Shown here piece after piece: positions 60,460 to 61,449 of a stretch of 64,000 nucleotides of DNA. The DNA lies in the sequence record OM858838. The stretch is one strand, 5' to 3'. Position 1 is the first letter of the stretch. Each line of letters opens with the position of its first letter. A program made the position numbers and the translations under genes. Source of the stretch: Shigella phage B2. The notes under the pieces were generated by a model that worked only from the letters and a program-made list of their open reading frames with translations, was not told the DNA's origin and ran no database searches.

Positions 60460-61449
60460 ATGCGTAAAACTGTATTAGTACTCGGCCTTGCACTGGCCTC
60501 TCTGTCTTTTGCTTCTGTAGCAAAGGATAACAATAACAACTCTCGTGGAGATGTTACTGTTGTTGGTGATGGAACTGGTTCAGTTCATATCAGTCAATGT
60601 GCCTCTACTTGGAATTGTAATAATTCCGAGTTAAATGTGGAGTTCACTGGTGATGTTGAAAACGTCACTATTAATGGTGAACACACTGTCATTAAAGGAC
60701 AAGATGGTAAAGATGGTGCTAACGGTAAGGATGGCATCAATGGTATCGACGGAGCCAAAGGTGACAAAGGCGATAAGGGAGATACCGGAGCATCTGGCAA
60801 GGACGGATTAAATGGAACCAACGGTACTAATGGTCGTGATGGTATTGACGGTAAGGATGGAGCCAAAGGAGATACTGGTGCTCAAGGTGAACGTGGTGAG
60901 CAAGGTATTCAAGGCGAAACAGGTGCTGCTGGTAAAGATGGTTTAAATGGTTCTGATGGTAAGGATGGTCTTAACGGTGAAAACGGGAAAGACGGTCTTA
61001 ATGGAACTAATGGTTTAGACGGCGCTAAAGGAGATAAAGGGGATGAAGGCAAACAAGGTATTGCTGGAATCGCTGGGCTGAATGGTAAAGATGCAGATAT
61101 GACTCAGGTCAATGCTAATACCGAAGCCAATAAATCTATCTCTAAGCGTCAGGATGCTTTTGAGAAATCCACCAATCAACGTTTTGCCAATATGGATAAA
61201 CGTATTGATGAGAATCGTAAGAATGCTTCTGCTGGTATTGCAGGCGTAGCTGCTATGGCTAACATTCCACAGGTAAGCCAGAATAGTTCATTCTCAGTTG
61301 GTGCTGGCGTTGGCTCATACGATAGTGAACAAGGTCTTGCTGTTGGTATGAGTGCCCGTTTTAACGAAAATGTAGTAACCAAAGCTTCAGTAGCTGCTAC
61401 TACTCAAGATGATTTCGTCTTTGGTGCTGGTGTAAGCTACGAATGGTAA
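60460..61449 (+). CDS. collagen-like repeat protein with signal peptide and YadA-type C-terminal membrane anchor
   Basis: Signal peptide MRKTVLVLGLALASLSFASVA; ~40 Gly-X-Y triplets; C-terminus ...AMANIPQV...GAGVGSYDSEQGLAVGMSARF...FGAGVSYEW resembles trimeric autotransporter anchors. Confidence 0.6.
   Translation: MRKTVLVLGLALASLSFASVAKDNNNNSRGDVTVVGDGTGSVHISQCASTWNCNNSELNVEFTGDVENVTINGEHTVIKGQDGKDGANGKDGINGIDGAKGDKGDKGDTGASGKDGLNGTNGTNGRDGIDGKDGAKGDTGAQGERGEQGIQGETGAAGKDGLNGSDGKDGLNGENGKDGLNGTNGLDGAKGDKGDEGKQGIAGIAGLNGKDADMTQVNANTEANKSISKRQDAFEKSTNQRFANMDKRIDENRKNASAGIAGVAAMANIPQVSQNSSFSVGAGVGSYDSEQGLAVGMSARFNENVVTKASVAATTQDDFVFGAGVSYEW

Follow-up and report, generated by a model that had tools for sequence, protein, structure and literature searches.

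The gene at positions 60460-61449 of the 64,000-nucleotide stretch of Shigella phage B2 DNA analysed here (sequence record OM858838; "the window" denotes the whole of this stretch) encodes a 329-amino-acid (aa) protein that we identify, with high confidence, as a trimeric autotransporter (type Vc) carrying a collagen-like stalk. The window corresponds to the circularly permuted genome of an N4-like podophage. The coding sequence and the segments of its product are arranged as follows.

60448-60452, + strand: ribosome-binding site GGGAG, 7 nt 5′ of the autotransporter ATG, read directly from the sequence
60460-61449, + strand: coding sequence of the trimeric autotransporter with collagen stalk, 329 aa, stop codon included (open reading frame, Pfam and PHROG matches, anchor alignments)
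60460-60522, + strand: Sec signal peptide, residues 1-21 (MRKTVLVLGLALASLSFASVA, cleaved before K), from the hydropathy profile and the −3/−1 rule
60523-60696, + strand: distal head, residues 22-79, short β strands with Gly/Asn turns between them, from homologue alignments
60697-61092, + strand: collagen-like stalk, residues 80-211, from the Pfam Collagen match and the triplet count
61093-61260, + strand: junction motif (GK)DADMTQVNAN and α-helical stalk, residues 212-267, from alignments and the helix in the AlphaFold2 (AF2) model
61261-61446, + strand: YadA-type membrane anchor with the C-terminal motif GAGVSYEW, from Pfam, the AF2 strands and Foldseek

The identification follows from the combination of membrane anchor, signal peptide and helical stalk, the domain set that defines type Vc proteins. 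A preliminary description of the locus had likened the C terminus to a YadA-like anchor on account of its terminal GAGVSYEW and had named searches for anchor and collagen domains as a check; both Pfam families score above their cutoffs. The protein ends in ...FGAGVSYEW, and residues 270-329 match all 60 positions of the YadA_anchor profile (PF03895; E = 1.4e-19; 70.4 bits, cutoff 22.7). A longer segment, residues 232-329, can be aligned over its full length with the YadA anchor of known structure, 2LME (phmmer, E = 1.3e-11), and the solved anchors of Hia and AtaA likewise align with the stalk-anchor region. The AF2 model of the monomer contains a helix at residues 214-267, with a predicted local distance difference test score (pLDDT) of 71-87, and four anchor strands at 278-287, 290-300, 305-314 and 319-327, helix and strands together spanning pLDDT 63-87. 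When this model was compared with the PDB using Foldseek, significant matches were limited to trimeric autotransporter anchors, with Hia (3EMO, 2GR7, 2GR8), AtaA (9VNJ) and YadA (2LME) at the top and TM-scores of 0.62-0.84 on the target. Four strands per chain would yield a 12-stranded barrel from three chains, and the helical segment at 212-267 presumably forms a coiled coil that enters the barrel lumen. At the other end of the protein, hydropathy and the −3/−1 rule bear out the cleavable signal peptide proposed earlier: an n-region (MRK) and a 14-residue hydrophobic core (TVLVLGLALASLSF) precede the cleavage site ASVA/K, and a signal peptide of the Sec type is kept throughout 114 homologues. 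The phage protein shares with YadA, Hia and AtaA its signal peptide, a helical stalk leading into a four-strand C-terminal anchor and a terminal aromatic residue; it differs from them in being very small (329 aa), encoded by a virulent phage, and equipped with a collagen-like passenger and a family-specific head of 58 aa.

The stalk consists of 44 Gly-X-Y triplets at residues 80-211, slightly more than the roughly 40 first estimated, with no interruptions and no proline; Asp, Lys, Asn and Ala predominate. It matches Pfam Collagen (PF01391) with E = 7.6e-23 and 80.5 bits (cutoff 27.2), and the gene is the only collagen-like open reading frame in the window. With its long unbroken tract flanked by a predicted coiled coil, the protein follows the pattern of prokaryotic collagen-like proteins, in which such a tract adjoins a trimerization domain. 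The tract is itself a trimer-forming motif and is consistent with the predicted obligate homotrimer in the outer membrane. If a triple helix forms, it would measure ∼38 nm at 0.286 nm per residue, and with ∼7 nm contributed by the coiled coil the fibre would extend ∼45 nm out from the membrane. The bacterial surface proteins Scl1/Scl2, Lcl and BclA, also collagen-like, resemble the phage protein in their uninterrupted Gly-X-Y tracts, strain-variable tract length and presentation at the cell surface; they differ in using LPXTG or other anchoring with no β-barrel, and matches to their families fall far below the family cutoffs. Between stalk and helix the junction (GK)DADMxxVNAN is almost invariant across homologues. 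Distal to the stalk, the 58-aa head contains a Cys47-x5-Cys53 loop that is invariant among aligned homologues, and an AF2 prediction of the head alone, from a 17-sequence alignment, is all-β at low confidence (mean pLDDT 61.9, predicted TM-score 0.37). An RGD at residues 29-31 was considered as a functional motif and set aside as chance; relatives have HGD, YGD or a deletion there. The open reading frame, the triplets, the domain matches and the neighbouring genes are together beyond chance.

Over 2 kb surrounding the gene, identity is 96.3% with Salmonella phage vB_SenP_UTK0001 and 89-92% with FSL SP-058 and FSL SP-076, all three classified in Schitoviridae, Humphriesvirinae, Ithacavirus. By sequence relationship, the phage in the window is thus assigned to Ithacavirus as a virulent N4-like Salmonella phage. 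A 3741-aa open reading frame at 13188-24413 (− strand) matches in size the virion-encapsidated RNA polymerase of N4-type phages and fits the assignment to Schitoviridae. The gene itself is already known from sister phages, in which it has been annotated and described in print. Moreno Switt et al. (2013) described it in FSL SP-058 and FSL SP-076 as a yadA homologue, an "agglutinating adhesin" that adjoins the dUTPase gene away from the tail genes, and listed yadA homologues also for phiEco32, My1 and two cyanophages (PMC3728262). Zheng et al. (2023) found YadA-anchor genes in 19 N4-like genomes and termed them virulence-associated auxiliary genes (PMC10654107). Neither of these two reports contains the collagen stalk or functional tests. 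The designation "yadA homologue" holds for the anchor alone, since the Pfam result comprises Collagen and YadA_anchor and lacks the YadA head (PF05658) and stalk (PF05662) domains, and since the NCBIfam YadA_autotrans model (NF033478) reaches 44.3 bits where 750 are required, with BimA and EmaA also far below their cutoffs. The orthologues in the sister phages (SP058_00135 in FSL SP-058, that of FSL SP-076, PJM42_0029 in vB_SenP_UTK0001, where it is labelled "tail fibers protein", and QSJ04000 in vB_SalP_TR2) are 89-96% identical in DNA and 73-94% in protein, lie between the gene for a protein with two predicted transmembrane segments (2-TM) and the dUTPase gene, and have the same domain order. 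They differ by point substitutions and in triplet number, with lengths of 338, 329 and 325 aa as compared with 329 aa here; collagen stalk and head do not figure in what has been published on them. What is added here is the structure of the transcription unit with its terminator, the selection on stalk and anchor, the range of triplet numbers, the family-specific head and the wide distribution among phages.

More than 100 homologues combine a signal peptide, a Cys-loop head, a collagen tract, the DADM junction, the helix and the anchor, and many of them are encoded on contigs of ∼70-72 kb, the scale of N4-like genomes. Relatives have collagen tracts of 16-58 triplets (14-50 nm), without a break in 113 of the 114 sequences. 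Identity among closer relatives is 92% in the anchor, 90% in the stalk and 75% in the head, and the rapid changes in stalk length suggest a spacer whose reach is being tuned. In four phages the ratio of nonsynonymous to synonymous substitution rates (dN/dS) for stalk plus anchor is 0.02-0.10, and the gene is therefore maintained by strong purifying selection within the phage lineage. When 1.84 billion representative sequences were searched exhaustively with the head by HMMER, 12 of the 14 matches were N termini of autotransporter relatives, most of which carry Collagen and YadA_anchor; in some, a coiled-coil stalk of >400 aa accompanies a very short collagen tract. The other two are giant cadherin-like/RTX proteins, which we did not accept as relatives and treated as weak compositional matches spread over many short stretches. 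One (P0124, 2191 aa) matches the 60-aa query at E = 1.5e-7 in 14 stretches and the other (P0128, 2852 aa) at E = 7.3e-6 in 6; these matches may be compositional, arising from V-x-V-x-G strands, or the head may be a cadherin- or Ig-like strand repeat. As far as these searches go, the head is specific to this autotransporter family.

The preliminary description held that proteins of this kind are normally chromosomal or prophage-borne, a generalization that does not survive comparison with phage genomes. A tblastn search with stalk and anchor identified related anchors in 81 phage records from many virulent lineages. In three genera of Schitoviridae the gene always lies immediately upstream of the dUTPase gene; other carriers include Kuravirus, the jumbo phages GAP32, fHe-Yen9-04 and Munch, Aeromonas jumbo phages, and Felix-O1-like, T4-like and Vi1-like phages, with the Eib prophage proteins as distant relatives. 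phiEco32 gp119 and its counterparts in Kuravirus, GAP32, fHe-Yen9-04, Munch, the Felix-O1-, T4- and Vi1-like phages and Erwinia phage S6, annotated "YadA-like" or "adhesin", are 45-70% identical in stalk and anchor, many have collagen repeats, and they lie in early or accessory regions. Their heads differ from the one described here, the Kuravirus N terminus being short and rich in Gly and Cys. The genome arm that contains phiEco32 gp119 has been classed as early or host takeover (PMC8948821). EibA, EibC and EibD of Escherichia coli prophages are likewise phage-borne and have a YadA-type anchor, 33-34% identical in the anchor region. In lysogens, the Eib proteins are produced by the resident prophages; their passengers are of coiled-coil/YadA-like type without collagen, and they bind immunoglobulin, whereas the gene studied here resides in a strictly lytic genome. 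Contigs of temperate phages, with integrase and lysis genes, also carry a copy that is 42-46% identical and has the same head, located in an accessory region. Genes for Tad2-like and Acb2/Tad1-hairpin (anti-defence) proteins adjoin these temperate homologues (L003, 601-1692 and 5093-5416; L013, 1308-2114). Across reference genomes of 185,579 species, the anchors closest to that of the phage (57-63% identity) are those of collagen-free adhesins in Enterobacteriaceae. Of the 30 cellular loci inspected, 5 combine collagen with DADM (Ewingella, Rahnella, Serratia and one uncultured Enterobacterales genome) and none has the head motif, suggesting that the architecture of head, collagen and junction is essentially phage-borne. 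It is puzzling that strictly lytic phages of many unrelated lineages should retain such an adhesin of the outer membrane, under purifying selection and within their early or accessory regions.

The autotransporter gene is the third and last of a compact unit of envelope-protein genes that ends in a terminator. The remaining features of the unit are these.

59728-59991, + strand: first gene of the unit, 87-aa protein, PHROG 3224 (E = 1.1e-25)
59988-60434, + strand: second gene of the unit, 148-aa protein, PHROG 3054 (E = 5.7e-36)
61456-61485, + strand: intrinsic terminator closing the three-gene unit, a AGCCTCTC-TTCG-GAGAGGCT hairpin followed by a T-run

The neighbours are as the preliminary description had them, the autotransporter gene lying directly 3′ of genes for one small exported product and one 2-TM membrane protein. 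The 87-aa protein, for which a Pfam search gave no match, has a single hydrophobic segment at residues 4-30 followed by AFG/SE, either a signal peptide or a signal anchor, and is probably periplasmic or membrane-tethered. The start codon of the 148-aa gene overlaps the stop codon of the 87-aa gene (ATGA), and its product has two hydrophobic segments of transmembrane length. A scan for sigma-70 promoters found none 5′ of the unit and gave fewer matches than shuffled sequence, as expected for an N4-like phage. The RNA polymerase (RNAP) II subunit genes lie at 55940-56863 and 57623-58861, the autotransporter gene being four genes 3′ of the latter, which encodes the large subunit, and the dUTPase gene (61535-61984) follows directly. 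By synteny with N4, the unit is placed downstream of the RNAP II genes. The large open reading frames, including the putative virion RNAP and structural genes, occupy the − strand at 13188-44237, and the autotransporter gene belongs to the pre-replicative cluster on the + strand. The proposal that it is part of an early operon in a lytic phage holds insofar as the phage is virulent and N4-like and the gene falls within its pre-replicative cluster on the + strand; expression may be early or middle. A gene for a TerB-like protein (63020-63469, + strand; Pfam E = 1.2e-7) lies 1.6 kb 3′ of the autotransporter gene, and an unrelated 71.7-kb phage contig has a collagen/YadA-anchor gene near TerC and TelA genes (L004, 7849-8832 and 11896-12999). 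Membrane-stress genes of tellurite-resistance families and autotransporters thus co-occur in two phage backbones.

The 148-aa 2-TM protein matches nothing in Pfam, NCBIfam or PADLOC and has homologues in 172 phage records, among them P22-like, Vibrio and phi92-like phages. Gene 34 of Shigella phage Sf6 is a homologue with 35% identity and is located directly after N and ral, the slot in which lambda and P22 keep sieB. Between the window and FSL SP-076 the protein is just 40% identical, whereas flanking DNA is ∼90% identical, and this difference suggests that the gene is exchanged as a cassette or diverges rapidly. The possibility that the 2-TM protein and the autotransporter travel together as a conserved mobile module was considered and rejected: the neighbours of the autotransporter gene in phiEco32 are not homologous to those here, gp120 being of the same size as the 148-aa protein with no similarity to it.

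We propose that the phage has its Salmonella host produce a miniature trimeric autotransporter during infection, either ahead of DNA replication or concurrently with it. By analogy with other members of the type Vc family, Sec would take each chain across by means of its signal peptide, and the host β-barrel assembly machinery (BAM) would build the three C-terminal four-strand units into a 12-stranded outer-membrane barrel. The passenger would exit C terminus first and then trimerize, with the helical segment forming a trimeric coiled coil that nucleates and registers the collagen-like triple helix of 44 triplets. Collagen zips from C to N, and a C-first order of secretion suits this architecture because the coiled coil emerges first and can nucleate the collagen. 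The triple helix would then zip toward the N terminus, with the DADM junction setting the register and the disulfide-looped β head capping the tip. Infected cells, and the envelope fragments that remain once they lyse, would bear fibres of ∼45 nm which, given the thickness of the O-antigen, probably project beyond that layer, and such a coat may make it harder for competing phages, and for newly released progeny of the phage itself, to adsorb to infected cells and debris. A surface-displayed type Vc fibre with a role in shielding or exclusion is the explanation we favour overall, at a probability of about 0.4. Within it, export and surface display during infection are likely. The assignment of shielding or exclusion as the role is tentative; here the company of envelope-protein genes, the location in a host-takeover region and the occurrence of the 2-TM family in the sieB slot of Sf6 point to superinfection exclusion, and the Tad2-like and Acb2/Tad1-like genes beside temperate homologues offer further context pointing to host takeover. 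Superinfection exclusion or receptor masking had been suggested from the outset, and on this context both are plausible. The phage proteins Llp of T5 and Cor of phi80 and N15 offer a functional analogy. They are small early lipoproteins that block one receptor and so stop adsorption to infected cells and debris; they have no sequence or structural relationship to the autotransporter. If the fibre does block adsorption, it would constitute a new kind of exclusion system relevant to the design of phage cocktails, and a true shield would represent a new mechanistic class of superinfection exclusion combined with protection of progeny.

Several observations weigh against a shielding fibre, and three of them, the short latent period of a relative, the lack of homology to known exclusion proteins and the lack of similarity between the head and other proteins of the phage, tell against an elaborate surface role of any kind. 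In the related phage TR2 the latent period is 15 min, and this leaves a short time for Sec and BAM to assemble a dense layer. The head and collagen parts of the AF2 monomer have pLDDT values <50, the collagen tract contains six KGD motifs in all, and the thermal stability of a triple helix without proline may be low. PADLOC gave no match for the autotransporter or the two upstream proteins, and Pfam gave no SieB-like match. When head and stalk were compared with the window by tblastn, no similarity to any other phage protein was found; derivation of the head from the phage's own receptor-binding proteins was accordingly discarded, nothing significant having emerged. The presence of the same head in N4-like and unrelated temperate phages disfavours the masking of one specific receptor, and a conserved distal head fits binding, as in an adhesin, at least as well as steric shielding. 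Literature searches identified no functional study of any lytic-phage autotransporter and no expression, localization or phenotype data for any member of the family.

It is also possible, and in our judgement about equally likely, that the same molecule, exported in the same way, serves in adhesion or aggregation rather than in shielding or exclusion. The head could bind neighbouring cells, mucus, surfaces or itself, so that a burst would be released beside fresh hosts or would not be washed out. To our knowledge, the characterized trimeric autotransporters (YadA, Hia, AtaA, SadA, Eib) all act as adhesins or autoagglutinins, as do all characterized collagen-like surface proteins of bacteria (Scl, Lcl), and this record of the relatives is one argument for such a role. 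The partial NCBIfam matches, all below their cutoffs, go to adhesins alone; the conserved, disulfide-stabilized distal head resembles a binding module; and a stalk of variable length would set it beyond O-antigen layers of differing thickness. There is also precedent in Ralstonia, where small collagen-like proteins help root attachment (bioRxiv 10.1101/2022.11.02.514976). On the other hand, no ligand is known, homophilic binding would clump infected cells only, with no obvious benefit, the 15 min latent period of TR2 limits the usefulness of adhesion as well, and we found no aggregation phenotype in the literature on these phages. If the fibre does glue infected cells to neighbours or surfaces, models of how phages spread through structured environments, the gut for example, would have to change. 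More speculatively, collagen-stalk autotransporters may be a widespread and unrecognized tool of virulent phages, laying down a layer of fibres on the host surface that is tuned to the O-antigen and acts as a shield or a "grappling hook"; as a general statement we consider this doubtful at present.

Two further explanations for the gene are improbable to a similar degree. According to the first, which is the interpretation given in PMC3728262 and PMC10654107, the gene is bacterial virulence cargo, a yadA-like auxiliary adhesin that raises the pathogenicity of the host and has no role in the lytic cycle, and the 57-63% identical anchors of chromosomal adhesins in Enterobacteriaceae lend it some support. 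Yet the phage is virulent, neither a lysogeny module nor transduction having been reported (PMC3728262), so that a bacterium cannot keep the gene; strong purifying selection operates in the phage lineage, with synteny across three genera; few of the cellular loci inspected have the collagen plus DADM form and none of them the head motif; and the protein is without YadA head and stalk domains, its NCBIfam adhesin matches all being subthreshold. A "virulence gene" flag in safety screens for phage therapy calls for more careful reading. According to the second, a burst of autotransporter synthesis loads or jams BAM or triggers envelope stress, altering receptor biogenesis, vesiculation or the timing of lysis. 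Such an effect would agree with the placement of the gene in one unit with two other envelope-protein genes and with the nearby membrane-stress genes of TerB, TerC and TelA type in this phage and an unrelated backbone, but it would not need a long, uninterrupted, length-tuned stalk or a conserved head, and the gene lies outside any lysis cassette. We know of no precedent for a BAM-jamming or envelope-stress role of such a phage protein.

Least probable is a tail fibre or tail protein of the virion, the label given by PHROG 26246 ("tail protein", E = 5.6e-183) and by several GenBank records ("tail fibers protein" or "tail protein"), since this label stems from the collagen repeat alone, a repeat that PHROG matches show to be common in phage fibres, and conflicts with a Sec signal peptide and complete outer-membrane anchor that have no place in a cytoplasmically assembled tailed virion, with the location of the gene in the pre-replicative cluster, at a distance from the structural module and on the other strand, and with the separation from the tail genes noted also by Moreno Switt et al. 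(PMC3728262). The database label is almost certainly wrong, and such labels in GenBank and PHROGs are misleading for the prediction of host range.

Several minor features of the window were noted in addition. Between the two RNAP II subunit genes, three small open reading frames (78, 71 and 70 aa) follow one another on the + strand at 57006-57626; their products are rich in Cys, with CxxC-like pairs, and could be zinc-binding regulators. A run of 11 C occurs in an intergenic position near 50.2 kb. Seven tRNA genes (Asp, Ile, Ser, Asn, Arg, Thr, Leu) lie on the + strand at 45107-46341, between the structural module and the early region. Gaps in the early region (50122-52564 and 54966-55030, + strand) contain several short hairpins with C-TTCG-G loops (for example GAGTCTTCGACTC, ACCGTCTTCGACGGT and GCGACTTCGTCGC), which could be N4-type promoter hairpins for the virion RNAP or early terminators.

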